Of a stretch of 64,000 bases of DNA, positions 6,566 through 63,224 are shown piece by piece (positions within the stretch are counted from its first letter, which is position 1; the number at the start of each line of letters is the position of its first letter). Under the pieces are notes generated by a model. The model made no database searches, had not been told where the DNA came from, and worked only from the letters and a program-made list of their open reading frames with translations. The position numbers and the translations under genes were made by a program. The stretch comes from an uncultured Syntrophaceae bacterium (GTDB taxonomy: Bacteria; Desulfobacterota; Syntrophia; Syntrophales; UBA2192): the NCBI GenBank assembly GCA_964429555.1, contig CAYSDD010000001.1:15627-79626 (forward strand). Reading direction: 5' to 3'.

Positions 6566-6772
6566 GAGGCCGTTTCCTATTGCAAGATGTGAAAAACGTG
6601 AAGGTCTTTCCCTTCATCGCAGGTTTTCCATTTTACAGGGGCTACCCGAGATATCCAACCGGAACCCTGTAGGATAAACCCTTCGCTTTTGCCGTTTCCC
6701 GCAGGTCTGAGGCCGCCCGACATTTCAAATATTATCTTTTCATATCAATATCTTGCGAATAATCATTTGCTC

Positions 6773-6789
6773 CTGGTACATCCGTTGCT
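6773..6789 (+). promoter_or_regulatory. Sigma-54 (-24/-12) promoter candidate
   Basis: cTGGTACatccgTTGCT compared with the consensus TGGCAC-N5-TTGCW has the correct GG-N10-GC spacing. It lies in an AT-rich gap about 35-55 nt upstream of the FN3 gene start. Confidence 0.6.
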
Positions 6790-6820: not shown

Positions 6821-7630
6821 GTGTGCCCAGGAGCATCAGCGTTGAAGCGATACGTTAAAAAACAACAAAAAAACAAACACTTAAACAGAAATTCGGCCCT
6901 GCTGAACCTCTTCGTCGTTCTTGCCGTCCTGCTGGTCCCCCTCCTTGCTGAACCCTCTGGCGCTGCGACGGTGACCGTCGCCTGGGACCCGAATCCCGAG
7001 CCGACCGTGGCGGGGTATCGTCTGTATTACGGGACTTCGTCGCGCTACTACACGAACTCCGTGGACGTGGCGAGCTCGACGCGGTGCACCATCTCGGCAC
7101 TCCTCGAGGGGGTGACCTATTACATGGCCGTCACGGCCTACGACACATCGGGCAATCAGAGCGGCTATTCCAACGAGATCGTCTACTCGGTGCCGGTGGG
7201 GACGTCTCCCTCGCCTTCTCCTGACGGGGGCACGGTGTCCGGCGGCGGCGGTGGCGGGGGCGGGTGCTTCATCGCGACGGCCGCCTTCGGCAGCCCCCTG
7301 GAGCCGGAGGTCGCACTGCTGAGGGAATTCCGGGATACCTGCCTCCTGACGAACGGCCCCGGCCGGGCATTCGTGGATTTCTACTACCGGGTCTCGCCCC
7401 CCGTTGCGGACTTCATCAGCGGCAGCGAGGAACTCAGGCAGATCACCCGGGGCATCCTGTGGCCCCTTGTCATGGCCGTGAAGAACCCGACGGCCGCCGT
7501 GGCCGTGATCATCACGGCCCTGTCGCTGGGGATCCTGTGCGGGGCCGGCCGCGGCAAAAGGCGCCGAACCGAGAGGCGGATGCCCCTGCCCGCCGCGCGG
7601 CGCAGCCTCCTCTTCCGCAGGGAGACCTGA
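6821..7630 (+). CDS. Secreted fibronectin type III domain protein with Gly-run + CFIATAAFGS C-terminal module and TM anchor
   Basis: Signal-like LLNLFVVLAVLLVPLLAEPSGA and an FN3-like segment VTVAWDPNPEPTVAGYRLYYG...YYMAVTAYDTSGNQSGYS, followed by GGGGGGGGCFIATAAFGSPLEPEVALLREFRD. The start is uncertain (GTG 6821 or TTG 6842). Confidence 0.75.
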   Translation: MCPGASALKRYVKKQQKNKHLNRNSALLNLFVVLAVLLVPLLAEPSGAATVTVAWDPNPEPTVAGYRLYYGTSSRYYTNSVDVASSTRCTISALLEGVTYYMAVTAYDTSGNQSGYSNEIVYSVPVGTSPSPSPDGGTVSGGGGGGGGCFIATAAFGSPLEPEVALLREFRDTCLLTNGPGRAFVDFYYRVSPPVADFISGSEELRQITRGILWPLVMAVKNPTAAVAVIITALSLGILCGAGRGKRRRTERRMPLPAARRSLLFRRET

Positions 7631-8050: not shown

Positions 8051-8464
8051 ATGCACAAAGAGACCTTGAGAAGAATCCTGACGGCTGCGGTTGTTGCCGT
8101 CGCCCTGACATTCGTCTTTGCGGCCGCCAGCCCGGCGGCGCCCGCCGCGGACCAGAAGAAGTTCGAGGAATACCGTGCGGCGATCCAGAAGGCACACGGC
8201 ATCGACATCAGGAACTTCAAGCAGAAGCTCAAGGGCGGCCGTGCCGACGCCCACAGGGTCACGGACTTCGATCTCGATCAGCTGATCATGGGGATCAAGG
8301 TCGAGCAGGAGCACACGACGGACAAGTACACGGCCCTCGAGATTTCCATGGACCACCTCGAGGAGATCCCGGACTACTACACGCGGCTGCACGAGATGGA
8401 GGAGACGGCCGAACAGGAGGCAGCCGAAGAGACGAGAAAGAAAGAGGCGGAAAAGAAGAAATAG
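8051..8464 (+). CDS. Secreted hypothetical protein with Glu/Lys-rich tail
   Basis: AAAGGAGGG RBS and signal peptide MHKETLRRILTAAVVAVALTFVFAAASPAAPA. The core GIKVEQEHTTDKYTALEISMDHLEEIPDYYTRL resembles a DUF family recalled from phage and bacterial proteins (unverified). Confidence 0.7.
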   Translation: MHKETLRRILTAAVVAVALTFVFAAASPAAPAADQKKFEEYRAAIQKAHGIDIRNFKQKLKGGRADAHRVTDFDLDQLIMGIKVEQEHTTDKYTALEISMDHLEEIPDYYTRLHEMEETAEQEAAEETRKKEAEKKK

Positions 8465-14507: not shown

Positions 14508-14839
14508 GTCTTGTTCCCTTTCGTCACCCCCAATATACGGTTTTTTTGTTTCCGGAAAATCGGCGGCGGTCTGAATCTTGGGTAGGAAAGCCGGACTTTC
14601 GAAGGGCAGAGGGCGTCTGAGTGGACCATAGGAGGTATGCCTATGGCGCCATACTGCTCTTGATCCGGTTGCATGCGGGCGAAGGAACGCATTGATCGCT
14701 TTGTTCACCGCCGTTGAACGTTTCTTTCAAGAAAACCCCCTGTCGCTGGCCTCCCGGGCAGTGACGGGCACGCCGGGTCATGATCGATACTGTAATCGAT
14801 TCAACAACTTGCAGATTATCTGCCATCCTCCTTTCACGT

Positions 14840-14855
14840 TGGCACGCTCCTTCCA
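14840..14855 (+). promoter_or_regulatory. Sigma-54-like promoter candidate (imperfect -12)
   Basis: TGGCACgctccTTCCA has a perfect -24 element, but the -12 is TTCC rather than TTGC. It lies 45 nt upstream of ATG 14900. Confidence 0.35.
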
Positions 14856-14899: not shown

Positions 14900-15172
14900 A
14901 TGAAAAAGACGCTTTCCACCCTGATTCTTTCCGCCGCCGTCGTTCTGATCACCGCCGGCTTCGCCTTTGCCGAGTACGCGGCAGCCGGGGCGGGCAACTT
15001 CCCCTACTTCCACCTGGGGGCCCTGATCGTGGGGGGCATGACGATCGTATCGCTCAAGCAGAAGTACGAGAAGCTCTACCTCAGCGAGGCGGTGGGCAGC
15101 TTTGCGATGTACGCGGTGCTGGTGGCGCTCTTCACGAGCCCGGTGGCCGAGGCGATCAGGAATCTCATGTAA
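14900..15172 (+). CDS. Small membrane/secreted protein (90 aa), unknown function
   Basis: GAGGAGG RBS and signal peptide MKKTLSTLILSAAVVLITAGFAFA, followed by two hydrophobic segments. Confidence 0.65.
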   Translation: MKKTLSTLILSAAVVLITAGFAFAEYAAAGAGNFPYFHLGALIVGGMTIVSLKQKYEKLYLSEAVGSFAMYAVLVALFTSPVAEAIRNLM

Positions 15173-50993: not shown

Positions 50994-51803
50994 ATGCATC
51001 GCATCGAAAAGACGTTTGCGGAGTTACGGAAGAGAGGAGAGAAGGCCCTCGTGGCCTACATCACGGCGGGCTACCCCGACTTGGAGACGACGCGGCAGCT
51101 GGTCCCGGCCCTGGAGAAAGCCGGTGTGGACATCCTGGAGGTGGGGGTGCCCTTCTCGGACCCCACGGCCGACGGGCCCGTGATCCAGGCCGCATCCCAG
51201 GCGGCCCTGAAAAAGGGCGCAACCCTCACCCGCATTCTGGACCTCCTCGGCGGTCTTCGGGGTGCCGTCGGGATCCCGATCGTGCTCTTCAGCTACTACA
51301 ACCCCATCTTTTCCATGGGGAACGAGAGCTTTGCGAGGCGAGCCTCCGCCGCGGGGGTGGACGGGGTGCTCGTCGTGGATCTCCCGGCGGAGGAAGCGGG
51401 AGAGCTTCGCCGCCACACCGACCCGGCCGGCATCGACTTCATCTCCCTCGTGGCGCCCACGACGGGCGCGGACCGGGTGAGGAAGATCGTCAGGGCGGCC
51501 ACGGGCTTCGTCTACTACATCTCCGTCACCGGCGTCACGGGCACCCGCGGCCCCGAGATGGAGGAGACGCGCGCAAACGTCGAGGCGATCCGTTCACTGA
51601 CGAAGCTACCCGTCGTCGTCGGCTTTGGCGTCACCACGGCCGAGCAGGCACGTCAGGTGGGCGGCATGGCCGACGGCGCCGTCGTCGGGAGCGCCTTCGT
51701 GCGGCTCATCGGCGAGAGGGCGGGCAACCCGGGAATGGCGGCTGCCGTGGGAGACTACGCGGCCTCACTCAAGGCGGCCCTTCGCCTCCGCTCTTCCGTT
51801 TGA
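50994..51803 (+). CDS. trpA: Tryptophan synthase alpha chain
   Basis: MHRIEKTFAELRKRGEKALVAYITAGYPDLETT...LEVGVPFSDPTADGPVIQ...GFVYYISVTGVTG. Confidence 0.9.
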   Translation: MHRIEKTFAELRKRGEKALVAYITAGYPDLETTRQLVPALEKAGVDILEVGVPFSDPTADGPVIQAASQAALKKGATLTRILDLLGGLRGAVGIPIVLFSYYNPIFSMGNESFARRASAAGVDGVLVVDLPAEEAGELRRHTDPAGIDFISLVAPTTGADRVRKIVRAATGFVYYISVTGVTGTRGPEMEETRANVEAIRSLTKLPVVVGFGVTTAEQARQVGGMADGAVVGSAFVRLIGERAGNPGMAAAVGDYAASLKAALRLRSSV

Positions 51804-51812
51804 TCGAGGGCC

Positions 51813-51841
51813 TTGTCGGCGGCCCGCGATCTTGGTATAGG
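51813..51841 (+). promoter_or_regulatory. Weak sigma-70-like promoter candidate for the response-regulator gene
   Basis: TTGTCG-N17-TATAGG, about 50 nt upstream of TTG 51892. Confidence 0.3.
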
Positions 51842-51891
51842 GGAGACACGGCGGCCGAAACCGCCGTCATGATCGGAGGCAACCTGTCCGC

Positions 51892-53253
51892 TTGAAACGA
51901 ATCCTGATTGTCGATAATGACGAGCCGGCACGGACCGCGCTGGCCGCCTTGCTTCGCGATGAAGGGTACGAGATTGATGAAGCGACCACCGAGATCGAGG
52001 CCATGCAGCTCGTGGAGCGACGCATCCCGGATCTGGTCGTTTCAGATCTGTGCGCGCCAGACTGCTTCTGCGTCGGCCTGCTGCACTGGATCAAGGAGCA
52101 CCACCCCCACCTGGACGTGATCATCGTCACGGCCTTCGGATCCATCGACTGCGTCGTCAAGACGATCAAGATGGGCGCCCTCAACTATGTCATGAAGCCC
52201 GTGAACAACGGGAAGTTCCTCGAGATCGTCCGCGAGGCCCTGCACCGGCGTGAGGGCGGGATGAAATCCCTGCGACGGGTCAATGAGCCTTACTGCTACC
52301 TCGTCGACGAGGTGGTGGGCGTCTCGCGCAGCATGGAGCAGGTCCTCAAGACGGCCCTCCGGGTCACCGACGTCGACAGCGGCATTCTCATCCGCGGCGA
52401 GAGCGGCACGGGCAAGGAGCTCATCGCCCGGATCCTCCACAACCGCAGCACCCATCGGCGCAACCGGGAATTCGTCGCCATCAACTGCGCCGCCATCCCG
52501 GGCGAGATCCTCGAGAGCGAACTCTTCGGCTCCGTGCGGGGGGCCTTCACGGGGGCGACCCAGACCCGCAAGGGTCTCATCGAGGTGGCCGACGGGGGGA
52601 CGCTCTTCATGGACGAGATCGGCGACACGTCGCCGCAGTTCCAGTCGAAGCTGCTGCGGGTCATCCAGGAAAAGGAGATCCGGCGGGTGGGTGACACGGC
52701 GTCGCGCTCCGTCGACGTGCGCATCGTGGCCGCCACCAACCGGGATCTCAAGAAGATGATCGGCGAAGGCACCTTTCGGGAGGACCTGTACTACCGGCTG
52801 AGCGTCATCGACATCATCGTCCCGCCGCTGCGGGAGCGCAAGGAAGACATCCAGCCCCTCGTGGACTACTTTCTCCAGGACATCAACGGCAGGCTCGGCA
52901 CCGGGATCGAGGGAGTCTCCGCGCAGGCCATGGCGGTCCTCATGGCCTACCCCTGGCCCGGAAACGTCCGGGAGCTGCGGAACAGCCTGGAGAGGGCCGC
53001 TCTGCTGTCGGGCCACAAGATGCTCAAGCCCGAGGACTTCCCGCTGGCCTTCGAGCACTACCTCCGGCTCACGCAGAAGGACAGGGACGATGAGATCATC
53101 CCCCTGAAGGAGATGGAACGCCGCCACCTGCTCAAGGCCATGCAGAAGTACAACTACAACCAGAAGCTCGTGGCGAAGAAGCTCGGCATCGGCTACACGA
53201 CGCTCTGGCGAAAGCTCAAGGAATCCGAGAAGGACATCAACTCGACGCCCTGA
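51892..53253 (+). CDS. Sigma-54-dependent response regulator (NtrC/bEBP: REC + AAA+ + Fis-type HTH)
   Basis: The start is TTG. The REC domain is KRILIVDNDEPARTAL...DLVVSD. The AAA+ domain carries Walker A GESGTGKE, the GAFTGA loop (RGAFTGA) and LFMDEIG. The C-terminal HTH is KLVAKKLGIGYTTLWRKL. No histidine kinase gene is adjacent. Confidence 0.85.
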   Translation: MKRILIVDNDEPARTALAALLRDEGYEIDEATTEIEAMQLVERRIPDLVVSDLCAPDCFCVGLLHWIKEHHPHLDVIIVTAFGSIDCVVKTIKMGALNYVMKPVNNGKFLEIVREALHRREGGMKSLRRVNEPYCYLVDEVVGVSRSMEQVLKTALRVTDVDSGILIRGESGTGKELIARILHNRSTHRRNREFVAINCAAIPGEILESELFGSVRGAFTGATQTRKGLIEVADGGTLFMDEIGDTSPQFQSKLLRVIQEKEIRRVGDTASRSVDVRIVAATNRDLKKMIGEGTFREDLYYRLSVIDIIVPPLRERKEDIQPLVDYFLQDINGRLGTGIEGVSAQAMAVLMAYPWPGNVRELRNSLERAALLSGHKMLKPEDFPLAFEHYLRLTQKDRDDEIIPLKEMERRHLLKAMQKYNYNQKLVAKKLGIGYTTLWRKLKESEKDINSTP

Positions 53254-53288
53254 GAGCGTGCGCTGAGCGAACGCTCCGTTTCGTTTTG
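53254..53288 (+). terminator. Weak terminator-like hairpin after the regulator gene
   Basis: GAGCGT-gcgctgagcga-ACGCTC followed by cgTTTcgTTTTg. Confidence 0.4.
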
Positions 53289-53337
53289 AAACACCCCCGC
53301 CCCGCCGCGGCCCCCCATCGGGGCCCCGCAGCCGATG

Positions 53338-53350
53338 TGACCCGCGGTCA
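53338..53350. promoter_or_regulatory. Palindrome, candidate enhancer (UAS) site
   Basis: TGACC-cgc-GGTCA lies about 100 bp upstream of the -24 element. A TGTGAC word recurs at 53336 and 53380, and an AT-rich tract with an IHF-like cATCAGaggcTTA (53386-53398) lies between them and the promoter. Confidence 0.3.
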
Positions 53351-53449
53351 GTTCACGCCGGAAAACAAAAATCTTTTTCTGTGACATCAGAGGCTTAAGC
53401 CGCCGTCGGCCGGCTTGGACCCGCCGCTTGCCGCAGGGTGGATTCCCCG

Positions 53450-53465
53450 TGGCACGGCCGTTGCC
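53450..53465 (+). promoter_or_regulatory. Sigma-54 promoter upstream of nuoA
   Basis: gTGGCACGgccgTTGCC is a near-perfect match to TGGCACG-N4-TTGC. The -12 element lies 42 nt upstream of the nuoA ATG. Confidence 0.7.
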
Positions 53466-53505
53466 ATCCATCGCTCATCCTCGAAAAGGGGCAACACGAA
53501 ACGGG

Positions 53506-53849
53506 ATGACGGCTTCCACCTCCATCTCCATCTATCTGCTGCTGGTCGTCGGGTCGGCGGCGCTGATCCTTCTGCTCTCCCATTGGGTCGGGCGCCGTCC
53601 CCTGACCCCCGAAAAGGACGTGCCCTACGAATGCGGCATGCCCCCCGCCGGGAGGGCGGGCACGCAGTTTCCCGTCCGGTTCTACAAGATAGCCCTGCTC
53701 TTCGTCGTTTTCGACGTGGAAATCGTCTTCCTGTACCTCTGGGCCGTCGTGGTCCGGGATCTCGGCCTCTTCGGGCTCGTCGAGATGTTCGTCTTCATCG
53801 CCGTCCTGCTGGCGGCCCTCGTCTACGTCTGGCACAAAGGAGACCTGCA

Positions 53850-53859
<10 letters not shown>
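53506..53859 (+). CDS. nuoA: NADH-quinone oxidoreductase subunit A
   Basis: ...[14 protein letters not shown]...[22 protein letters not shown]...; 117 aa with three TM helices. Confidence 0.9.
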
Positions 53860-54325
<466 letters not shown>

Positions 54326-54329
<4 letters not shown>

Positions 54330-54781
54330 ACCTCGACGCCCTCCGGGAGCGCTTCGGCACGGCCCTCGGCGAGCCGGCAACGTTTCGCGGCGAGACGACC
54401 CTGACGGTGGATCGCAACAGCCTTGTCGCGCTCTGTGAATGCCTACGCGATGACGAAGCCCTTGCCTTCGATTTCCTTGCCGACCTGTGCGGCGTAGACC
54501 GCCATCCCGCCGCGCCGCGCTTCGAGGTGGTCTACCACCTGTATTCGGTGCGGCACGGGCACCGTCTCCGGGTCAAGGTTGCACTCGAAGAGGAAGACCC
54601 GGTCATCGACTCCGTCACGGGGGTCTGGGAGACGGCGGACTGGCACGAGCGGGAGTGCTTCGACCTCTTCGGGATCCGTTTCCGCAATCACCCCGACCTC
54701 AGGCGCATCCTGCTGCCCGACGATTTCGAGGGGCACCCGCTGCGGAAGGACTTCCCCCTGGAGGGGATGGACAGGACATGA
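54326..54781 (+). CDS. nuoC: NADH-quinone oxidoreductase subunit C
   Basis: ...[11 protein letters not shown]...VVYHLYS...[34 protein letters not shown]...; the start ATGA overlaps nuoB. Confidence 0.9.
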
Positions 54782-55947
54782 GCGCCGAGACCCTGAGCCT
54801 GAACCTGGGCCCTCAGCACCCGAGCACCCACGGGGTTCTGCGCGTCATCCTCGAGCTCGACGGCGAGACCGTTGTCGACGCCCGCCCCGACATCGGCTTT
54901 CTGCACCGGGGCATCGAGAAGCTCGCCGAGAGCCGCACGTACCACCAAGTCATCGTGCTCACCGACCGCCTCGACTACCTGGCGGCCCTGAGCAACAACC
55001 TGGCCTATGTCCTGGCGGTGGAAAAGCTCATGGACATCGAGGTCCCCCGGCGGGCCCGCTACGTCCGCGTCGCCCTGGCCGAGCTGCAGCGGATCGCGAG
55101 CCACCTGTTCTGGCTCGGCACCCACGCCCACGACCTCGGGGCCATGACGCCGCTGTTCTATGCCCTGCGCGAGCGGGAGGCGCTCATGGACATCTTCGAG
55201 ACGCTCTCGGGCTCCCGGCTGACGCCCAGCTTTCTGCGGGTCGGGGGACTGGCGGCCGACATCGACGGCCGCTTTGTCGGGTCCGTGCGGGCCTTCACGG
55301 ACACCTTCCAGAAACGGGTGGACGAGTACGAGACGCTGCTGACGGACAACCCCATCTGGAAGCGCCGGACGAAGGGGGTGGGCGTTCTCGACGCGGGGCA
55401 GTGCATCCGCCTGGGCATTTCGGGTCCCATGCTGCGCAGCGCCGGGGTGCCCCTGGACCTGCGGAGGGCGCAGCCGTACAGCGGCTACGACGAATTTCAT
55501 TTTGAAATACCCACCGGAACGGCAGGCGACGTCTACGACCGGTACCTCGTCCGCATCCGGGAGATGCGCGAAAGCGCCCGCATCGCCCGGCAGGCCGTCG
55601 ACGGGCTCCCCGAGGGTCCCTGGACGGCGTCGGGCTCGCCGGCCGTCTTCCCCGCGAGGGACGAGCTGAAGCACAGCATCGCCGGCCTCATCCGGCATTT
55701 CGGTCTCGTCATGGAGGGCATGAAGCCCCCGGCGGGCGAGGTCTATCACGCCGTCGAGTCGCCGCGGGGAGAGCTGGGGTTCTACATCGTCAGCGACGGC
55801 GGCCCGCGGCCCCTGCGGTTCAAGGTCCGCCCCCCGTCCTTCGTGAACCTCCAGGGCCTCGTGAAGATGATCCGCGGCAGGCTCCTGGCCGACGTGGTGG
55901 CCGTCATCGGGGCCGTGGACATCGTGCTGGCCGAGGTGGACCGGTAA
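54778..55947 (+). CDS. nuoD: NADH-quinone oxidoreductase subunit D
   Basis: LNLGPQHPSTHGVLRVILELDGE...GFLHRGIEKL...DRLDY...ESPRGELGFY...VDIVLAEVDR. Confidence 0.9.
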   Translation: MSAETLSLNLGPQHPSTHGVLRVILELDGETVVDARPDIGFLHRGIEKLAESRTYHQVIVLTDRLDYLAALSNNLAYVLAVEKLMDIEVPRRARYVRVALAELQRIASHLFWLGTHAHDLGAMTPLFYALREREALMDIFETLSGSRLTPSFLRVGGLAADIDGRFVGSVRAFTDTFQKRVDEYETLLTDNPIWKRRTKGVGVLDAGQCIRLGISGPMLRSAGVPLDLRRAQPYSGYDEFHFEIPTGTAGDVYDRYLVRIREMRESARIARQAVDGLPEGPWTASGSPAVFPARDELKHSIAGLIRHFGLVMEGMKPPAGEVYHAVESPRGELGFYIVSDGGPRPLRFKVRPPSFVNLQGLVKMIRGRLLADVVAVIGAVDIVLAEVDR

Positions 55948-55992: not shown

Positions 55993-56475
55993 ATGAGACA
56001 GGAGCTCGTAAAACAGTTTTCGGAGGAGCAGATGGCGAAAGTGGACGCCCTGATCGAGTCGCACCGCAGGGTGCCCGGCTCCCTGCTCGTGGTGCTCGAG
56101 AAGGCGCAAGACATCACCCTGTACCTGCCCGTGACTCTCCAGCGATACATCGCCGAGGGGATGGGGATCCCTCCGAGCAAGGTTTCCGGCGTGGTGACCT
56201 TCTACTCCTACTTCAGCACCGTCCCGCGGGGACGAAAGGTCGTCAAGGTCTGCAGCGGGACCGCCTGCTACGTGAAACGCTCCGGCGAGATCATGGACCG
56301 GCTCAAGCAGAAGATCGGGGTCGAGGAGGGGGAGGTCTCCGCCGACGGCGAGTACTCCATCGAGGAGGTCCGCTGCCTGGGGGCCTGCGGCCTGGCGCCC
56401 GTCGTCGTCATCGGCGAGGAGACCTTCGGCCTCATCGACCCGGAACACGTGGAGGAGATCATCGAAAAGGCCTGA
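55993..56475 (+). CDS. nuoE: NADH-quinone oxidoreductase subunit E (thioredoxin-like 2Fe-2S)
   Basis: ...SLLVVLEKAQD...VKVCSGTACYVKRSGEI...VRCLGACGLAPVVVI. Confidence 0.9.
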   Translation: MRQELVKQFSEEQMAKVDALIESHRRVPGSLLVVLEKAQDITLYLPVTLQRYIAEGMGIPPSKVSGVVTFYSYFSTVPRGRKVVKVCSGTACYVKRSGEIMDRLKQKIGVEEGEVSADGEYSIEEVRCLGACGLAPVVVIGEETFGLIDPEHVEEIIEKA

Positions 56476-56508: not shown

Positions 56509-56901
56509 ATGACCATCAAGGAATTGACTGAAATCAAGGAAAGCTACATCGACGAGCGGAAGAAAGAGCTCGAGGAGGGCGTGGCGACCGTCGACGTCCA
56601 CATGGGCACCTGCGGCATCGCCGCCGGCGGGCGCAATGTCTTTTCCGCCCTGCAGGGGGAGATCGAGCGCCTCGGGATCGGCCGCGTGAAGCTGCGCGTC
56701 ACGGGCTGCGCGGGGCTCTGCAGCATGGAGCCCATGATCACCGTGCATCTTCCCGGGCAGGCGCCCGTCAAATACGGCAAGCTCGACGCCGCGAAGACCC
56801 GGGAGATCTTCTACAGCCACGTCCTCGGCGGCCGCCCGAAGGCGGAGTACGCCATCGGGCAGGGCCTCGAGAAACCGCAGAAACGGGTGGAGATCGAATG
56901 A
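56509..56901 (+). CDS. Stand-alone thioredoxin-like [2Fe-2S] ferredoxin domain protein inserted between nuoE and nuoF
   Basis: VDVHMGTCGIAAGGRNV...LRVTGCAGLCSMEPMITV has the Cys pattern of the 2Fe-2S domain that is fused to the N-terminus of HydB/HndC-type subunits. Confidence 0.75.
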   Translation: MTIKELTEIKESYIDERKKELEEGVATVDVHMGTCGIAAGGRNVFSALQGEIERLGIGRVKLRVTGCAGLCSMEPMITVHLPGQAPVKYGKLDAAKTREIFYSHVLGGRPKAEYAIGQGLEKPQKRVEIE

Positions 56902-58685
56902 TCTCGTCGGTCAGCAAGATCGCCTACTGCGCGAGCCGGAGCTGCAAGTTCCGCAAGCCCATCGACGTGCGCTCTCTGCTGGAGAGGGCCCTCGACGAAC
57001 TGGGCTATCGCGACCGGATCGGCCTCGTGGAGACCGAGTGCCTGATCTCGTGCTACCAGGGCCCCTCCATCATGTTCCTGCCGGGCGGCAAGGTTTTCCA
57101 GGTCCTCTCGGAGGAGCACTTCACGGAAACGCTGAAGGGCTTCTTCGCCTCGCTGCAGCACCCCACCTCGCCACTGCTGAGCGAGCCCCGCACCGAGAAG
57201 GAGATCCCGGGGATCGAGCACCTGGACTTTTTCGCGAAGCAAAAGCTCATCGTGCTGCGCAACCGGGGCCACATCGACGCCGAGTCGATCGAGGAATACA
57301 TCGCCCACGACGGCTATCTCGCCCTGTACAAGGCCCTGACGGCCATGACGCCCGAGGAGGTCATCGGCGAGGTGAAGCTCTCGGGCCTTCGCGGCCGGGG
57401 CGGCGCGGGGTTCCCCACGGGCACCAAGTGGGAAGAGGCGCGCAAGTACGCCGCCTTCCCGAAGTACGTCATCTGCAACGGCGACGAGGGAGACCCCGGC
57501 GCCTTCATGGACCGCAGCGTCATGGAATCGGATCCCCACGCCGTCCTGGAGGGGATGATCGTCTGCGGCTACGCCATCGGCGCCCGCCAGGGCTACATCT
57601 ACGTCCGGGCCGAGTATCCCCTGGCGCTGCGGATGCTGCGGACGGCCATCGACAGGGCCCGCGAGAAGGGGTTCCTGGGCCGCAACGTCCTGGGCACGGG
57701 ATTCGATTTCGACATCGACATCTACCCCGGGGCGGGGGCCTTCGTCTGCGGCGAGTCGACGGCGCTCATGTACTCCATCGAGGGAAAGCGCGGCATGCCG
57801 CGCATCAAGCCCCCCCGTTCCACCGAGTCGGGCCTCTGGGGCCGGCCCACGTGCCTCAACAACGTGGAGACCTTCGCCAACATCCCCCGGATCATCCTCA
57901 ACGGGGGCGCGTGGTTCCGCGCCATCGGCACCGAGGACAGCACGGGCACGAAGGTCTTTTCGCTGACGGGGGCCGTGAAGAACGTGGGTCTCGTGGAGGT
58001 GCCCATGGGGACGGATTTGCGGACGATCATCTTCGAGATCGGCGGGGGCATCCGGGGCAACGCCCGCTTCAAGGCCGTCCAACTGGGCGGTCCCTCGGGG
58101 GGATGCCTCACGGAACAGCACCTGCACCTGCCGGTGACCTTCGATTCGCTGCAGGACGCCGGCGCCATGATGGGCTCGGGCGGCGTCGTCGTCATGGACG
58201 ACACGAACTGCATGGTGGACGTGGCCCGCTTCTTCACGCAGTTCAGCGTCGACGAGTCCTGCGGCAAGTGCGTTCCCTGCCGCGTGGGCCTCAAGGTCAT
58301 GCTGGGCACGCTGGAGAAGATCATCGTCGGGCAGGGGGAGCCCTCGGACCTGGCGCTCCTGGAGAGGCAGGCCAACCACATCGCCGCCACCTCCCACTGC
58401 GGTCTCGGGCAGGCGGCCCCCAACCCCGTCCTGAGCACCCTGCGCTACTTCCATGACGAGTACGAGGCCCACATCCGCGAGAAACGCTGCCCGGCGCTGG
58501 TCTGCACGGACCTCATCCGCTTCGAGATCGACGCGGAGGCCTGCAAGCGCTGCGGGCTGTGCGCGAAGGTCTGCCCCGTCAATGCCATCTCCTGGCAGAA
58601 GAAGGAGCCGGCCGTCCTGCACCAAGAGAAATGCATCCGCTGCAAGTCCTGCATCCGGGCCTGCAGGTTCAAGGCGATCCACTAG
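56898..58685 (+). CDS. nuoF: NuoF-like NADH dehydrogenase FMN/NAD-binding subunit, extended (595 aa) HydB/HndC-type architecture
   Basis: The N-terminal extra domain has YCASRSC...ECLISC. The NuoF core is GLRGRGGAGFPTGTKW...ICNGDEGDPGAFMDR...ESCGKCVPCR. The C-terminal 2x[4Fe-4S] motifs are CKRCGLCAKVCP and CIRCKSCIRAC. Confidence 0.85.
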   Translation: MISSVSKIAYCASRSCKFRKPIDVRSLLERALDELGYRDRIGLVETECLISCYQGPSIMFLPGGKVFQVLSEEHFTETLKGFFASLQHPTSPLLSEPRTEKEIPGIEHLDFFAKQKLIVLRNRGHIDAESIEEYIAHDGYLALYKALTAMTPEEVIGEVKLSGLRGRGGAGFPTGTKWEEARKYAAFPKYVICNGDEGDPGAFMDRSVMESDPHAVLEGMIVCGYAIGARQGYIYVRAEYPLALRMLRTAIDRAREKGFLGRNVLGTGFDFDIDIYPGAGAFVCGESTALMYSIEGKRGMPRIKPPRSTESGLWGRPTCLNNVETFANIPRIILNGGAWFRAIGTEDSTGTKVFSLTGAVKNVGLVEVPMGTDLRTIIFEIGGGIRGNARFKAVQLGGPSGGCLTEQHLHLPVTFDSLQDAGAMMGSGGVVVMDDTNCMVDVARFFTQFSVDESCGKCVPCRVGLKVMLGTLEKIIVGQGEPSDLALLERQANHIAATSHCGLGQAAPNPVLSTLRYFHDEYEAHIREKRCPALVCTDLIRFEIDAEACKRCGLCAKVCPVNAISWQKKEPAVLHQEKCIRCKSCIRACRFKAIH

Positions 58686-58694
58686 AGGAACCCC

Positions 58695-61031
58695 ATGATC
58701 ACCCTGAAAGTCAACGACATCGAGGTCACCGTCCCGCGGGGGAGCACCATCCTGCAGGCCGCCGAGAAGGCGGGCGTTTTCGTGCCGACGCTCTGCCACG
58801 ACAAGCGGATCGCCCCCTTCGGGGCCTGCCGCCTCTGCGTCGTCGAGGACCGGAAGAAGCCCGGCAGCCTGATCCCGTCGTGCTTCACCCCCGCGCGGGA
58901 CCGCATGGAGATCCTCACGGAGACCCCCGCCGTACTCGACGCCGTGCGGACCCAGCTGCAGCTCATCCTCGTGAACCACCCCCTGGACTGCCCCGTGTGC
59001 GACAAGGCCGGCGAGTGTACCCTGCAGGACCTGGTGATCCGCTACAACATCACCGAGTCCCCTTTCGGGACAGAGCGTTTCGCGCGCTATGTGGATCGCC
59101 GCTCGCCGCTCATCGAGCGCGACATGACCCGCTGCGTCCTGTGCGGCCGCTGCGTGCGGATCTGCGGCGAGCTGCAGGGCCGGGACGAGCTGGAGTTTCT
59201 CCACCGGGGCCACCGGACGGTTGTGGGAACCGACGGGGGCCGGCCCCTCGATTGCGACTTCTGCGGGCTCTGCGTCTCCACCTGTCCCGTGGGCGCGCTC
59301 AACGACAAGCTCTTCAAGGACCGGACCCGCGTCTGGAAACTTCGGCAGGAAACCACCGTCTGCAGCCACTGCGGCCTCGCCTGCCGGGCCGACTTCCACC
59401 TGGAAGAGGGACGGCTGCGGCGCGTGACACCGGCCGCCGCGTCGGGAGGCGAAAAAGGCCTTCTCTGCGCGAGGGGGCAGTTCGGCTGGCGTGCCTTCGA
59501 GAGCCCCGGCCGTCTCGGCGCCCCGAAGCTCCGCAGGGACGGGGCGTTGTGCGAGGCCGGCTGGGACGAGGCCGTCGGCCATGCGGCGAAGGCCCTCGAC
59601 GACATCCGGCGCGCCCACGGCGCGGCGTCGATCGCCCTGCTCACGGCGGACCATCTCACGACGGAGGAGGCGGCTGCCTGGGGCGCCTTCTGGCGGGACA
59701 CCCTGGGCGGCGGCCCGATCGGCTCGATCCAGGCGGGCGGGTACCGCCGGATCCTCGAGATCCTCGAAGGCGCCCGGGGCACGCGGGTCGCAGTGGGGAC
59801 CCTCCGGGATCTCGACGAAGCGAATGTCCTCATCGTCCTGGGAGGAGGGGCAGCCGAGATGCACCCCGTGCTCAAGCCCCTCGTCAACGGCTGGATGAAA
59901 AAGGGCGACAGGCAACTCGCCGTCGTCTCGTCCTGGCCCGACGCCCTGACACGGCGGGCGACACTTGCCCTCACCGTCGGCCCCGGGCTGGTGGAGGAAT
60001 TCTGCGCGGAGCTTCTCGAGGCCCTCGGCCCGGAGAGGATAAATCCCCCGGCTGACCTGGCGCGGTTCGGCATCGACTCCTGCGCCCTGGCCCGCCTCAT
60101 CGGCCTGCTCGAGGAAAAGCGGGACATCGCGGTGCTCGTCGCGCCGGAGCCCTGCGGGGACAACCGGCACAAGGCGCGCCTGGCGGCATACCTGCAGGAC
60201 CGGGTTCGGGCCGTTGTGCCCTTGGGAGGGCAGGCCAACAGCGCCGGCGCCGTGTTCGAAGCGGGCTTTACCTCCGGTGAAGTGGCCGTCGACGGGCTGT
60301 CTCTTGTCGAGGCCATTGAGGCCGGCCGCATCCGGGCACTCTACCTCCTGGGCGAAGATCCCCTCGAGAGCCTGCCTGACCCGTCGCGGGTGCGGCAGGC
60401 CATGGAAAAGCTCGACTGCATCGTCTGCCAGGGCCCCTTCGAAACGGCCGTCACCGGCCTTGCGCACGTGGTCCTGCCCGCGGCCCTCCTCCACGAGAAG
60501 CGGGGGACCGTTCTGTCGCTCCTGGGGGAGAAGCGCACCCTCCGTCCCGTGCTGCCCCCCTTCGGGCGGTCCCGGCCGGACGGGGAGATCCTCCGGGCCC
60601 TCGCCGCGGCCCTCGGCAGCGAGGCCGTGCCCCGCGTGCCGGCTGCCCCGGCGGCGCAGAAGACGGCGATCCCGTCCGTGGGCGCCGTGCCCCGGGATGC
60701 CGGGCAGGGGATGCCCTTCATTCTCGAGGCGGTGCCCTCGCTTTTCGGCGATGGGATCCTGTCGAGGCAGAGCCCCGATCTGGCGCAGCTGCGCCGGGGC
60801 CTCCGGGTCGTGATGAGCGCCGGGGACTTCGAGCGCCTGGGGCTTGCGGAGCGTGAGATCGTGGAGGTCAGGACTCCCTTCGGCTGCGCCCGGGCCGAGG
60901 CGGAGCGGGACGCGGCCGTGCCGTGCAGCCGGCTTCTCCTGCGGCACGCGGCGGGCAGCGCCGCAGGTCTTTCCCTCACCCGGCCGGGCACAAGCGCCGT
61001 GCCGGCGGCCATTGCGAGGATCGGGACATGA
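58695..61031 (+). CDS. nuoG: NADH-quinone oxidoreductase subunit G
   Basis: The N-terminal 2Fe-2S region is LCHDKRIAPFGACRLCVV, followed by HPLDCPVCDKAGEC, CVLCGRCVRIC and CDFCGLCVSTCPVGAL, and then a molybdopterin-oxidoreductase-like domain. Confidence 0.85.
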   Translation: MITLKVNDIEVTVPRGSTILQAAEKAGVFVPTLCHDKRIAPFGACRLCVVEDRKKPGSLIPSCFTPARDRMEILTETPAVLDAVRTQLQLILVNHPLDCPVCDKAGECTLQDLVIRYNITESPFGTERFARYVDRRSPLIERDMTRCVLCGRCVRICGELQGRDELEFLHRGHRTVVGTDGGRPLDCDFCGLCVSTCPVGALNDKLFKDRTRVWKLRQETTVCSHCGLACRADFHLEEGRLRRVTPAAASGGEKGLLCARGQFGWRAFESPGRLGAPKLRRDGALCEAGWDEAVGHAAKALDDIRRAHGAASIALLTADHLTTEEAAAWGAFWRDTLGGGPIGSIQAGGYRRILEILEGARGTRVAVGTLRDLDEANVLIVLGGGAAEMHPVLKPLVNGWMKKGDRQLAVVSSWPDALTRRATLALTVGPGLVEEFCAELLEALGPERINPPADLARFGIDSCALARLIGLLEEKRDIAVLVAPEPCGDNRHKARLAAYLQDRVRAVVPLGGQANSAGAVFEAGFTSGEVAVDGLSLVEAIEAGRIRALYLLGEDPLESLPDPSRVRQAMEKLDCIVCQGPFETAVTGLAHVVLPAALLHEKRGTVLSLLGEKRTLRPVLPPFGRSRPDGEILRALAAALGSEAVPRVPAAPAAQKTAIPSVGAVPRDAGQGMPFILEAVPSLFGDGILSRQSPDLAQLRRGLRVVMSAGDFERLGLAEREIVEVRTPFGCARAEAERDAAVPCSRLLLRHAAGSAAGLSLTRPGTSAVPAAIARIGT

Positions 61032-61987
61032 CGACAGCGGATTTCCTGTGGGGCGTAGTGCGGATCGTCCTCATCTTTTCGGCCGTCATGGGCCTTGTCG
61101 CCTATATGACCCTGATGGAGAGACGCTTTTTGGGCTTCTTCCAGGTCCGGCTGGGCCCCAACCGCGTCGGCCCCGGGGGCCTGCTGCAGCCGATCGCCGA
61201 CGGGATCAAGCTCCTCTTCAAGGAGGACATGACCGTCTCCCATGCGAACCGCTTCTGGTTTCTCCTGGCGCCGGCCATCGCGCTCGTGTCGGTGCTGGCC
61301 TGCTTCGCCGTCGTGCCGGCCTCGCCGACGGTCGTCGTGGCGGATCTGCCCGTGGCCGTCCTGTACCTCCTGGCCCTCTCTTCCCTGGGCGTCTACGGCA
61401 TCCTGATGGCCGGCTGGTCTTCCAACAACACGTACTCGCTGCTGGGCGGGCTGCGGGCCGCCGCCCAGATGATCAGCTACGAAATCCCGCTGGCGCTGTC
61501 CGTCGTGGGCGTGCTGATCCTCGCCGGCTCCATGAGCCTCGTCGAGATCGTGAAGGCCCAGGAGGGGCTCTGGTTCGCCGTGAAGCAGCCCCTGGGGTTT
61601 GCCCTTTTTCTGATCTGCATCTCCGCGGAGACCAACCGCACGCCCTTCGACCTGCTGGAGTGCGAAAACGAACTGGTCGCCGGCTACCAGACGGAGTATT
61701 CCTCCATGAAGTTCGGGCTCTTCTACATGGCCGAGTACGCCCACATCCTGCTGGCCTCGTGCCTGGTGAGCCTCTTCTTCCTGGGCGGCTGGAACGGCCC
61801 GCTGCTGCCGGCGCCCCTGTGGCTGCTCGTCAAGGTCTTCTTCGTCTTTGCGGCGTTCATCTGGGTACGGGCCACCTTCCCCCGCATCCGCTACGATCAG
61901 CTGATGGGATTTTCCTGGAAGGTGCTGCTGCCGCTTGCCTTCGTGAACCTGATGGCGACGGCGGCGCTGACGGTACTCCTTTCGTGA
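61028..61987 (+). CDS. nuoH: NADH-quinone oxidoreductase subunit H
   Basis: LMERRFLGFFQVRLGPNRVGPGGLLQPIADGIKLLFKED...ETNRTPFDLLECENELVAGYQTEYS; the start ATGA overlaps nuoG. Confidence 0.9.
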   Translation: MTTADFLWGVVRIVLIFSAVMGLVAYMTLMERRFLGFFQVRLGPNRVGPGGLLQPIADGIKLLFKEDMTVSHANRFWFLLAPAIALVSVLACFAVVPASPTVVVADLPVAVLYLLALSSLGVYGILMAGWSSNNTYSLLGGLRAAAQMISYEIPLALSVVGVLILAGSMSLVEIVKAQEGLWFAVKQPLGFALFLICISAETNRTPFDLLECENELVAGYQTEYSSMKFGLFYMAEYAHILLASCLVSLFFLGGWNGPLLPAPLWLLVKVFFVFAAFIWVRATFPRIRYDQLMGFSWKVLLPLAFVNLMATAALTVLLS

Positions 61988-61996
61988 GGAAATGAC

Positions 61997-62422
61997 ATGA
62001 GCAAGGCCCTGCTGAAGGGGTTGGCCCTGACCCTGCAGACGTTTTTCCGAAAGCCCGTCACGGTGCAGTACCCCGACGAGAAGCGGCCCGTTCCGGGTCG
62101 CTTCCGGGGGCGGCCGGCACTCGTCGCCCGCGAGGACGGCGCGCCCCGCTGCGTGGCCTGCGGCCTCTGCGAGAAGATCTGCCCGAGCCTCTGCATCGCC
62201 GTCACGGCCGAAACGGGCCCCGAGGGCATCCGGGCGCTTGCCCGCTACCGCCTCGATCTCAACCGATGCTCCTTCTGCGGGCTCTGCGTCGAGGCCTGCC
62301 CGGTGGAGGCCATCATCATGAGCGCCGACTACGAACTGGCCGCCGCCGGCCGCGAGTCCCTTGTCTGGGACAAGGGGCGCCTGCCGGCCGGGTCTGGCCG
62401 GGCCGGGGAGGGACGATCATGA
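61997..62422 (+). CDS. nuoI: NADH-quinone oxidoreductase subunit I
   Basis: Two ferredoxin motifs are present: [12 protein letters not shown] and [12 protein letters not shown]. Confidence 0.9.
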
Positions 62423-62928
62423 TCGAGACAGTCCTCTTCTGGGTTCTGGCCGCCGCTTCCGTCGCCTCCGCCCTGGGGGTCGTCGCCCTGCGAAGCCCCG
62501 TTGGCAGCGTCATGGCGCTGCTTGCGGCCATGCTGGCCACGGCGGGTCTCTACGCCCTCATGGGGGCGCCCGTGCTGGCCCTCTTCCAGGTCATCGTCTA
62601 TATCGGGGCCGTCCTCGTGCTCTTCCTGTTCGTCGTCATGCTCCTCGATCTCAAGGGGACCACTGCCCGCGGGAGGCCCTCGGCCCGTGCCGCGGCGGCG
62701 GGCGCGGCCGGCATCGGACTCACGGCGGCGGCAGCCTGGGGGGCATGGAAGGGTTTTTCGCAGGCGGCCCCCGTGGGCGGTCTTCGTCCCGCGCCCGGCA
62801 TTTCCGAGATCGCCATCGACCTCTTCGGCCGGCATCTGCTCGTCTTCGAGTTGACCTCCGTGCTGCTCCTGGCCGCGGCCGTCGGGGCCGTGTTCGTCAG
62901 CCGGACGAAAAAAAGGAGGCCCTCATGA
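62419..62928 (+). CDS. nuoJ: NADH-quinone oxidoreductase subunit J
   Basis: [35 protein letters not shown]...[21 protein letters not shown]; the start ATGA overlaps nuoI. Confidence 0.85.
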
Positions 62929-63224
62929 GCCTGGAACACGTCGTCGGATTGGGGATCGTCCTCTTCGCCATCGGGGCGGCGGGGTTCTTCGTCCGCTCCA
63001 ACGCCCTCGTGCTGCTTCTGTGCGTCGAGCTCATGCTCAACGCCGTGAACCTGATCCTCGCGGGGTTTTCCCGCTACCTCCACGGGACGGATGGGCAGGT
63101 CTTCGTCTTCATGATCATGACGGTGGCCGCCGCGGAGGCCGCCGTGGGGCTTGCCATTCTCGTGGCCCTCTGCCGGCTCCTCGGGACCCTCGACATGAGC
63201 CGGATCAACATCCTGAAAGGGTAA
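62925..63224 (+). CDS. nuoK: NADH-quinone oxidoreductase subunit K
   Basis: ...[20 protein letters not shown]...[18 protein letters not shown]; 99 aa. Confidence 0.9.

Follow-up and report, generated by a model that had tools for sequence, protein, structure and literature searches.

A Candidate Sigma-54-Dependent Promoter and a Linked Enhancer-Binding Protein Ahead of the Complex I Genes in a Syntrophales Lineage

Introduction

Which promoter and which regulator serve the genes of respiratory complex I in an uncultured Syntrophaceae bacterium? The question is raised by a 64,000-nt stretch of contig CAYSDD010000001.1 (the window, by which we mean the whole stretch analyzed), in which a nuo operon directly follows a gene for a response regulator that combines a receiver (REC) domain, an AAA+ domain, and a helix-turn-helix (HTH). 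The original prediction, made from the DNA letters alone, held that nuo is read from a near-consensus, enhancer-dependent sigma-54 promoter and that the adjacent orphan regulator acts on it. By comparing this locus with its relatives, we find that the promoter element and the pairing of the two genes are both widely conserved. On this comparative evidence, we consider it probable, with good confidence, that nuo is transcribed from an enhancer-dependent sigma-54 promoter by its neighbor as a dedicated activator. The signal that would switch this activator on is much more evenly contested.

Results

A Promoter Element Is Conserved Ahead of nuoA

The window has a single exact match to TGGCAC-N5-TTGC, against 0.15 expected: the -24/-12 element that precedes nuoA (TGGCACGGCCGTTGC), whose -12 GC ends 41 nt ahead of the nuoA start codon. 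In a shuffle control, 13 of 100 shuffles yielded at least one exact match. The weight of the case comes from conservation across loci.

Related loci were collected by a scan of species-representative genomes and by exact look-ups of graded homologues, which yielded activator orthologues at 95% to 51% identity, and one further locus (L135) was found later by its DNA pattern. All are metagenomic contigs of Syntrophales or Smithella. Each of the 15 loci analyzed carries a GG-N10-GC element with 8–10 of the 10 consensus bases, located 32–87 nt ahead of nuoA, and the near-consensus promoter named in the original prediction is thereby upheld. When scored against dinucleotide shuffles of the 110 nt ahead of nuoA, the promoter has p = 0.0005–0.03 per locus. 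Combined by Fisher's method over the first 12 loci, treated as independent, these values give p of about 4e-16, a figure that overstates the independence of loci that are related to one another. The sequence around the promoter spans 29% to 67% G+C in the 15 loci and is otherwise unalignable; the GG, the GC, and the spacing between them are invariant. A transcription start is predicted near 53475–53477.

A scan of positions 51700–53900 for sigma-70-like promoters and terminator-like sites found none, and an Rfam scan of 51000–54500 returned nothing relevant. An RNA element or terminator in the gap between the two genes was also considered and rejected, as the fold of 53240–53360 is not more stable than that of shuffled sequences (z = -1.1).

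The Neighboring Gene Encodes an Activator That Stays with nuoA

The product of the gene just upstream of nuoA matches Response_reg (PF00072, 2.3e-21), Sigma54_activat (PF00158, 1.8e-68), AAA_lid_14, and HTH_8 (3.6e-12), and its GAFTGA loop is intact, in agreement with the original prediction. An alignment of the family shows Walker A (G169–E176), Walker B (D241-E242), and GAFTGA (217–222) to be invariant. The closest solved structures are those of Aquifex NtrC-family proteins (4l4u, 1ny5, 3dzd; E 1e-98 to 1e-83). The activator falls under the cut-off of every named NCBIfam equivalog (NtrC, 378 versus 558.6; AtoC, 375 versus 714; ZraR, 360 versus 760; GlrR, 315 versus 763; NtrX, 330 versus 600) and therefore represents an unnamed subfamily. 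Its closest database relatives come from Syntrophaceae/Syntrophales metagenome-assembled genomes.

The activator gene adjoins nuoA in 16 of 17 evaluable loci, over a range of 51–100% activator identity. The two genes are in tandem in the window's own locus and in L002, L003, L004, L081, L082, L084, L086, L087, L089, L090, L091, and L135. They are divergent, with nuoA upstream, in three Smithella-type loci of about 54% identity (L006, L007, L083). The other neighbor of the activator gene varies from locus to locus and may be trpA or a gene for a TMEM175 protein, a dCache protein, a diacylglycerol kinase, a bactofilin, or a pseudouridine synthase. Because the pairing survives both inversion and full turnover of the flank, these gene orders provide strong evidence for a functional link between the activator and nuoA.

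A 45% identical paralogue sits in an ordinary kinase–regulator pair. For the activator itself, no adjoining kinase gene was seen in the window, where its neighbors are trpB and trpA upstream and nuoA–L downstream, or in those nuo-linked loci for which a gene table was read. The regulator is thus an orphan, as originally described, and the proposal of an enhancer-dependent nuo promoter beside it gains support from the conservation of both partners.

A Family-Specific Cysteine Cluster Complicates the Input Signal

The original prediction spoke of two-component control. The receiver domain does have D52, T80, and K102, all conserved in the alignment, but the two-component label is an assumption, and a cluster of cysteines in the same domain may sense redox state itself. 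The segment D52-L-C54-x-P-D-C58-x-C60 stands where the near-universal D-h-x-M-P-x-h-D-G loop is normally found, and C87 provides a fourth conserved cysteine. The motif D-[LM]-C-x3-C-x-C occurs in about 55 of the 73 hits with at least 50% identity and in none of 47 paralogue-level hits. In a HMMER search with the REC domain only against 1.84e9 representatives, the best 150 hits included the motif in just 4 family members; it was missing from the 146 non-family hits. An AlphaFold2 model (mean predicted local distance difference test score, 82.9) has a REC fold with C87 in alpha4 and with C54, C58, and C60 in the beta3-alpha3 loop (residues 52–60), where confidence is lowest within the receiver fold. 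The second acidic-pocket residue is noncanonical as well, the equivalent of CheY-D13 being N, S, or H.

We regard the input as split roughly evenly between two possibilities: an unlinked kinase phosphorylates D52, or the four cysteines themselves sense redox state or a metal. The first possibility, in which a histidine kinase encoded elsewhere controls the activator by phosphorylation in the usual way and the cysteines are structural or incidental, has in our view about an even chance of being correct. The conserved D52, T80, and K102 suit it, and orphan NtrC-type regulators with distant kinases are common. Moreover, in a sub-branch of the family (P0056, P0060–62, P0064–66), the loop cysteines have partly or wholly disappeared, yet the link to nuo persists in L084, L089, and L090 (P0062, P0060, and P0064, respectively). 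Set against this are the restriction of the cysteine triad to the family, the altered acidic pocket, the lack of a kinase gene beside the activator in any nuo-linked locus, and the precedent of FixT from Caulobacter crescentus, a receiver domain in which C53, C56, C59, and C64 bind an oxygen-sensitive iron–sulfur (Fe–S) cluster and which was called the first of its kind (PMC7078487). FixT resembles the activator in carrying four cysteines in a corresponding region of the receiver fold; it differs in being a single-domain kinase inhibitor rather than a transcription factor and in its cysteine spacing, the candidate ligands of the window's protein being C54, C58, C60, and C87.

The family-specific cysteine cluster may be the missing sensor. 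A more specific version of this idea, which we put forward tentatively and consider less probable than phosphorylation, is that the activator is a kinase-independent, one-component redox switch. Its receiver domain would bind an Fe–S cluster or a metal, or form disulfides, through C54, C58, C60, and C87, and would in this way tie the redox state of the cell directly to an all-or-none transcription of complex I by sigma-54; in the clade of the window, full activation would also use an enhancer copy within nuoD, 2 kb downstream of the promoter (see below).

A separate observation concerns the phosphorylation site. In P0062, P0064, and P0065, D52 is replaced by Glu, which may be a constitutive mimic.

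Two Palindromes Lie Upstream of the Promoter

The gap from the activator stop codon to nuoA is 252 bp (53254–53505), of which 196 bp separate the stop codon from the -24 element, close to the 200 bp originally estimated. Alignment of the tandem gaps reveals a distal palindrome, GTKCG-N5-CGMAC (site A; GTGCGCTGAGCGAAC), and a proximal one, TTTCA-N3-TGAAA (site B; TTTCGTTTTGAAA in the window). In 14 of 15 loci, a B-type site precedes the -12 GC by 167–181 bp; in L007, the distance is 152 bp. Twelve of the 15 loci (11 of the 12 tandem ones and L006) have a second palindrome 19–22 bp, or about two helical turns, upstream of B. This distal palindrome is A-type in eight tandem loci (the window, L002, L081, L004, L003, L082, L086, L087), where its center precedes the -12 GC by 189–201 bp; its distance from site B is 20 bp, except for 19 bp in L081. 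It is B-type (TTTCAAAATGAAA) in L084, L089, L090, and L006. The first three of these have two B-type sites 21–22 bp apart and no site A, and L091 has three B-type sites, 75 bp apart. A strict B motif has 17 matches in the orthologous loci, every one in the regulatory gap or at a single position in nuoD, and none in 607 kb of 74 unrelated loci.

The recognition helix of the HTH (GIGYTTLWRKLK) is identical in tandem and divergent arrangements, and B is the only motif that the two share; B is therefore the expected target, and the activator presumably binds this palindrome. Half-site position 3 of site A varies without covariation, and this lack of compensating change points to a protein-binding site on DNA rather than an RNA stem or hairpin. 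Two further interpretations of site A were rejected. It is not a diverged B site, as its half-site spacing is 2 bp off (TTC-N7-GAA versus TTC-N5-GAA), and it is not a general type of activator enhancer, its few other occurrences being scattered in G+C-rich DNA. Site A co-occurs with the site inside nuoD and takes the slot that a B-type site holds in other clades. In the divergent loci L006 and L083, an extra B-type palindrome directly adjoins the -24 element, its center preceding the -12 GC by only 27–29 bp. This extra site may be operator-like, or autoregulatory for the divergent activator gene.

The conserved candidate enhancer is not where the original prediction had placed it. The palindrome it named, TGACCcgcGGTCA, is present, but it is not conserved, and the conserved candidate lies at 53258–53291, immediately behind the activator stop codon. 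Likewise, TGTGAC does occur twice (53336 and 53380), with partial conservation in L002 alone. The TGACC..GGTCA palindrome and the TGTGAC words were accordingly rejected as the enhancer, being lineage-specific elements that recur partly and in L002 only. As for the proposed AT-rich, integration host factor (IHF)-like tract, the A/T-rich part stands. An A/T-rich segment recurs at a corresponding point of the aligned gaps and may aid bending, but the IHF resemblance was not borne out (see below).

A Further Copy of the Palindrome Is Embedded in nuoD

The enhancer palindrome also occurs, free of mismatches, within nuoD (GAATTTCATTTTGAAAT). In an ungapped 1167-nt comparison of five loci, this 17-nt segment is the longest invariant run of the gene, the next being 8 nt, and the invariant fraction of nuoD third positions is 0.21 overall. 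Five consecutive codons of the palindrome end in A or T and are thus rare codons that run against the codon bias: the window's nuoD has a G+C fraction of 0.93 at third codon positions, and the tallied nuo and activator genes favor TTC, CAC, and GAG at 80–84%. An internal sigma-54 promoter following the palindrome was rejected, since no -24/-12-like site was found at a shared position in six loci.

Among contigs that reach nuoD, the copy occurs in all loci whose gap combines an A-type distal site with one B site, and in no others; where the gap contains two or three B sites, nuoD has no copy. Every evaluable locus thus has at least two B-type sites. This distribution fits an activator that would need two dimers and could use a distant downstream enhancer. 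Alternative explanations for the nuoD palindrome are a conserved rare-codon pause or a looping operator.

The Palindrome Pair Recurs at Other Activator Genes

When metagenomes were scanned for the double B site, 55 stretches were obtained, two of them from the nuo-activator family. Of the remainder, at least 18 have a different REC–AAA+–HTH_8 gene (38–41% identity) no more than about 600 bp away. The pair TTTCAAAATGAAA-N7/8-TTTCATTTTGAAA stands beside activator genes in four low-G+C contigs (L102, L104, L121, L125) in which the next gene is kdpA or kup. It directly follows the activator stop codon in L102 and L125, and in L102, L104, and L121 a -24/-12 site scoring 9 of 10 is at most about 520 bp from the pair. 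These activators have the same domain architecture and the same palindrome pair as the nuo-linked family. They differ in sequence, at 38–41% identity, in their target operon, in having a canonical receiver loop where it is readable (L097, L125), and in an enhancer that is nearer the promoter (about 80–110 bp in L104 and L121). About 33 further double-B matches, mostly with spacer 7 and several from human-gut contigs, have no activator gene in the fetched stretch.

Since the pair serves more than one activator family, it is hard to explain through a binding protein that is not an activator. This bears on the possibility that the sigma-54 promoter is real but the B palindromes are bound by some other protein, for example a repressor that loops between the gap and nuoD, with the activator acting elsewhere, for example at site A. 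Several features would suit such a protein. The gap in the window's clade pairs one B site with an A site of different half-site spacing, the second B site lies 2 kb downstream in nuoD in a layout that is also seen with looping repressors, and the extra B site of L006 and L083 occupies an operator-typical position. We nevertheless judge this explanation unlikely, given that the B pair also accompanies unrelated activator genes where sigma-54 promoters precede kdp/kup, that the spacing is fixed at about 175 bp, as suits an upstream activating sequence, and that 7 of 15 loci have no site A while their activators share the recognition helix.

Proposed Mechanism and Remaining Alternatives

From the elements, their conservation, and their geometry, we infer the following course of binding and activation. 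The HTH_8 domain of the activator would bind TTTCA-N3-TGAAA, centered about 180 bp upstream of the -12 element, and probably the nuoD copy also; the nuoD copy and whatever binds site A would perhaps help the activator at the B-type palindromes. Once a signal has switched on the receiver domain, the AAA+ domains would assemble into a ring. With the DNA looped across the A/T-rich tract, this ring would contact the sigma-54 holoenzyme in its closed complex at the promoter. It would then open the promoter by means of ATP hydrolysis and its GAFTGA loop, and nuoA–N would be transcribed from about 53476. Without active regulator, the promoter would be silent.

Some observations limit or weigh against this model. 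Taken alone, the promoter match in the one window is weak evidence. An RpoN-box peptide search did not find rpoN in the window or in any fetched locus; the presence of sigma-54 in the host is presumed from the intact GAFTGA activator and a survey of sigma-54 regulons (PMC12316311). The window's B site contains one mismatch (TTTCG) and is the single B site of its gap, and the neighboring site A differs from it in half-site spacing. The IHF consensus WATCAANNNNTTR, allowing at most one mismatch, has no match in 53254–53505. In L085, the only evaluable locus in which the activator is not beside nuo, the protein is 50% identical, has an altered HTH, and does not carry the cysteine triad. Finally, L087 keeps promoter and enhancer even though its activator has GALPDA instead of GAFTGA.

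The L087 protein (P0072) itself looks composite. Its N-terminal 300 residues, with a canonical receiver loop and GALPDA, are divergent; its C-terminal 150 residues, together with the enhancer, the promoter, and nuoA, are close to those of the window. L087 may be a recombinant gene or an assembly chimera, or its promoter may be served by another activator.

If the latter held generally, the promoter would be real and the neighboring gene linked to it by chance or co-inheritance. L087 would be an example, but we consider this very improbable: the linkage holds from 100% to 51% identity and through inversion while every other neighbor changes, and the enhancer always lies between, or directly after, the activator and nuoA genes. 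It is just as improbable that the -24/-12 element is unused and nuo is reached by read-through from the activator gene or from an unrecognized sigma-70-type promoter, since the chance matches in shuffles and the lack of a terminator-like site after the activator gene are outweighed by the invariant GG/GC and spacing in 15 loci of widely diverged G+C content, by the absence of sigma-70-like sites in the region scanned, and by the three divergent loci, in which such read-through is impossible.

The Complex I Operon and Its Surroundings

The window is G+C-rich, and its right-hand part carries trpE-G-D-C-F, trpB, and trpA (Trp_syntA, 1.6e-86), followed by an 88-bp gap and the activator open reading frame (ORF). 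The complex I cluster runs from nuoA to nuoK and into the start of nuoL; nuoM and nuoN would fall past the window end. Coordinates are collected in Table 1, in which the boundaries of nuoB, nuoC, and nuoD were taken from comparison with L081. The ferredoxin-like ORF between nuoE and nuoF and the extended NuoF recur in every related locus that reaches this region, and in these sequence features the N-module of complex I resembles those of NADH-linked hydrogenases or electron-bifurcating enzymes. A short tandem repeat built of GGCAAAGGGCGAAAGGC-like units sets the nuoD–nuoE gap of L002 (about 8055–8125) apart from that of the other loci.

Table 1. Positions in the window of the activator gene, candidate regulatory elements, and complex I genes
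Feature	Position	Strand	Remarks
Enhancer-binding protein gene	51892..53253	+	453 aa, TTG start; REC 1-121, linker, AAA+, HTH_8
Codons D52, C54, C58, C60	52045..52071	+	D52, phospho-acceptor; D-L-C-x3-C-x-C loop
Codon C87	52150..52152	+	GSIDCVVKT, helix alpha4; fourth conserved Cys
GAFTGA sigma-54 contact loop	52540..52557	+	residues 217-222, intact
Site A, distal palindrome	53258..53272	.	GTKCG-N5-CGMAC; from alignment of tandem gaps
Site B, proximal palindrome	53279..53291	.	TTTCA-N3-TGAAA, 1 mismatch here; putative activator site
TGACCcgcGGTCA palindrome	53338..53350	.	approximate in closest relative L002, absent elsewhere
A/T-rich tract	53361..53379	.	between enhancer and promoter
-24/-12 element	53450-53464	+	10/10 core bases of TGGCAC-N5-TTGC
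nuoA	53506..53859	+	ATG at 53506; Oxidored_q4, 4.9e-36
nuoB	53850-54329	+	NCBIfam NuoB
nuoC	54326-54781	+	NCBIfam NuoC
nuoD	54778-55947	+	Complex1_49kDa
Intragenic enhancer palindrome, perfect	55492..55508	.	inside nuoD, codons EFHFEI
nuoE	55993-56475	+	
130-aa ORF	56509-56901	+	weak 2Fe-2S-ferredoxin similarity; between nuoE and nuoF
nuoF	56898-58685	+	595 aa, extra C-terminal 2x[4Fe-4S] domain
nuoG	58695-61031	+	
nuoH	ORF end at 61987	+	
nuoI	61997-62422	+	
nuoJ	end at 62928	+	
nuoK	62925-63224	+	
nuoL	63230 to past window end (64000)	+	start only within window

Other sigma-54-like sites occur elsewhere in the window. A second candidate promoter, TGGTACATCCGTTGC (6774–6788; 9 of 10), lies 32 nt ahead of an fn3-domain ORF (6821–7630), and an exact IHF consensus, TATCAATATCTTG (6743–6755), is located in an A/T-rich tract just upstream of it. 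The near-match TGGCACGCTCCTTCC, within 14799–14854, has TC rather than GC at -12 and a 1-mismatch IHF-like site 30 bp upstream; it precedes a small signal-peptide or membrane-protein ORF (about 14900–15172) and is probably weak or nonfunctional.

Discussion

The logic described here is that of a textbook module of sigma-54 and an enhancer-binding protein; what is new is the complex I target and the unnamed activator subfamily. Aquifex aeolicus NtrC1 (1NY5), NtrC4 (3DZD), and the full-length protein 4L4U share with the window's activator the REC–AAA+–HTH_8 architecture, GAFTGA, and the Walker motifs. Identity to them is only at the level of the general family, and the protein studied here differs in its cysteine-rich receiver loop, the lack of an adjacent kinase, and the complex I target.

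Desulfovibrio vulgaris belongs to an anaerobic deltaproteobacterial lineage. Its OrpR is a kinase-independent sigma-54 activator that senses redox state through a Cys-ligated [4Fe-4S] cluster in a PAS domain; it has a tiny local regulon, uses two dedicated DNA sites, needs IHF, and controls the orp operons (PMC8359166). OrpR is comparable to the window's activator as a dedicated sigma-54 activator in an anaerobic deltaproteobacterial lineage. The two differ in that OrpR has a PAS sensor, an IHF requirement, and orp targets, compared with a receiver domain, no IHF match, and nuo here.

Regulation of nuo elsewhere offers a second comparison. In E. coli, nuo has a sigma-70 promoter that is regulated by ArcA, NarL, FNR, and IHF. 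The transcriptional regulation of E. coli nuoA-N is the subject of Bongaerts 1995, as cited in PMC4453560. Geobacter sulfurreducens nuoA was reported as likely transcribed by RpoD RNA polymerase and repressed by HgtR, with hgtR alone being sigma-54-dependent, so that a sigma-54/activator pair affects nuoA only indirectly (PMC2817479). In both organisms, nuoA heads a long operon, as it does here, and its expression there responds to redox conditions or the electron donor; nuoA is, however, read in them by the housekeeping sigma factor and modulated by repressors or activators, whereas here it has a -24/-12 promoter with a putatively dedicated activator. In the literature on sigma-54-dependent nuo, the only hint we found is a weak, unvalidated in silico RpoN site at Xylella nuoA (PMC3224663), and nuo is not mentioned in the 2025 sigma-54 regulon survey (PMC12316311) or the D. 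vulgaris regulome.

The module is compact, comprising an activator, two palindromes, and a promoter, and is thus directly testable in a heterologous host. If the cysteine-rich receiver is indeed the sensor, it would be the second known Fe–S receiver domain and the first to drive transcription. The usual description of the complex I operon has it read by the housekeeping sigma factor and adjusted by global redox regulators. The Syntrophales, a lineage of syntrophic anaerobes, would instead place complex I behind a promoter that is silent unless a dedicated, ATP-driven activator fires, which implies a need for full on/off control. Such a switch may follow shifts of energy metabolism between its syntrophic and axenic modes.

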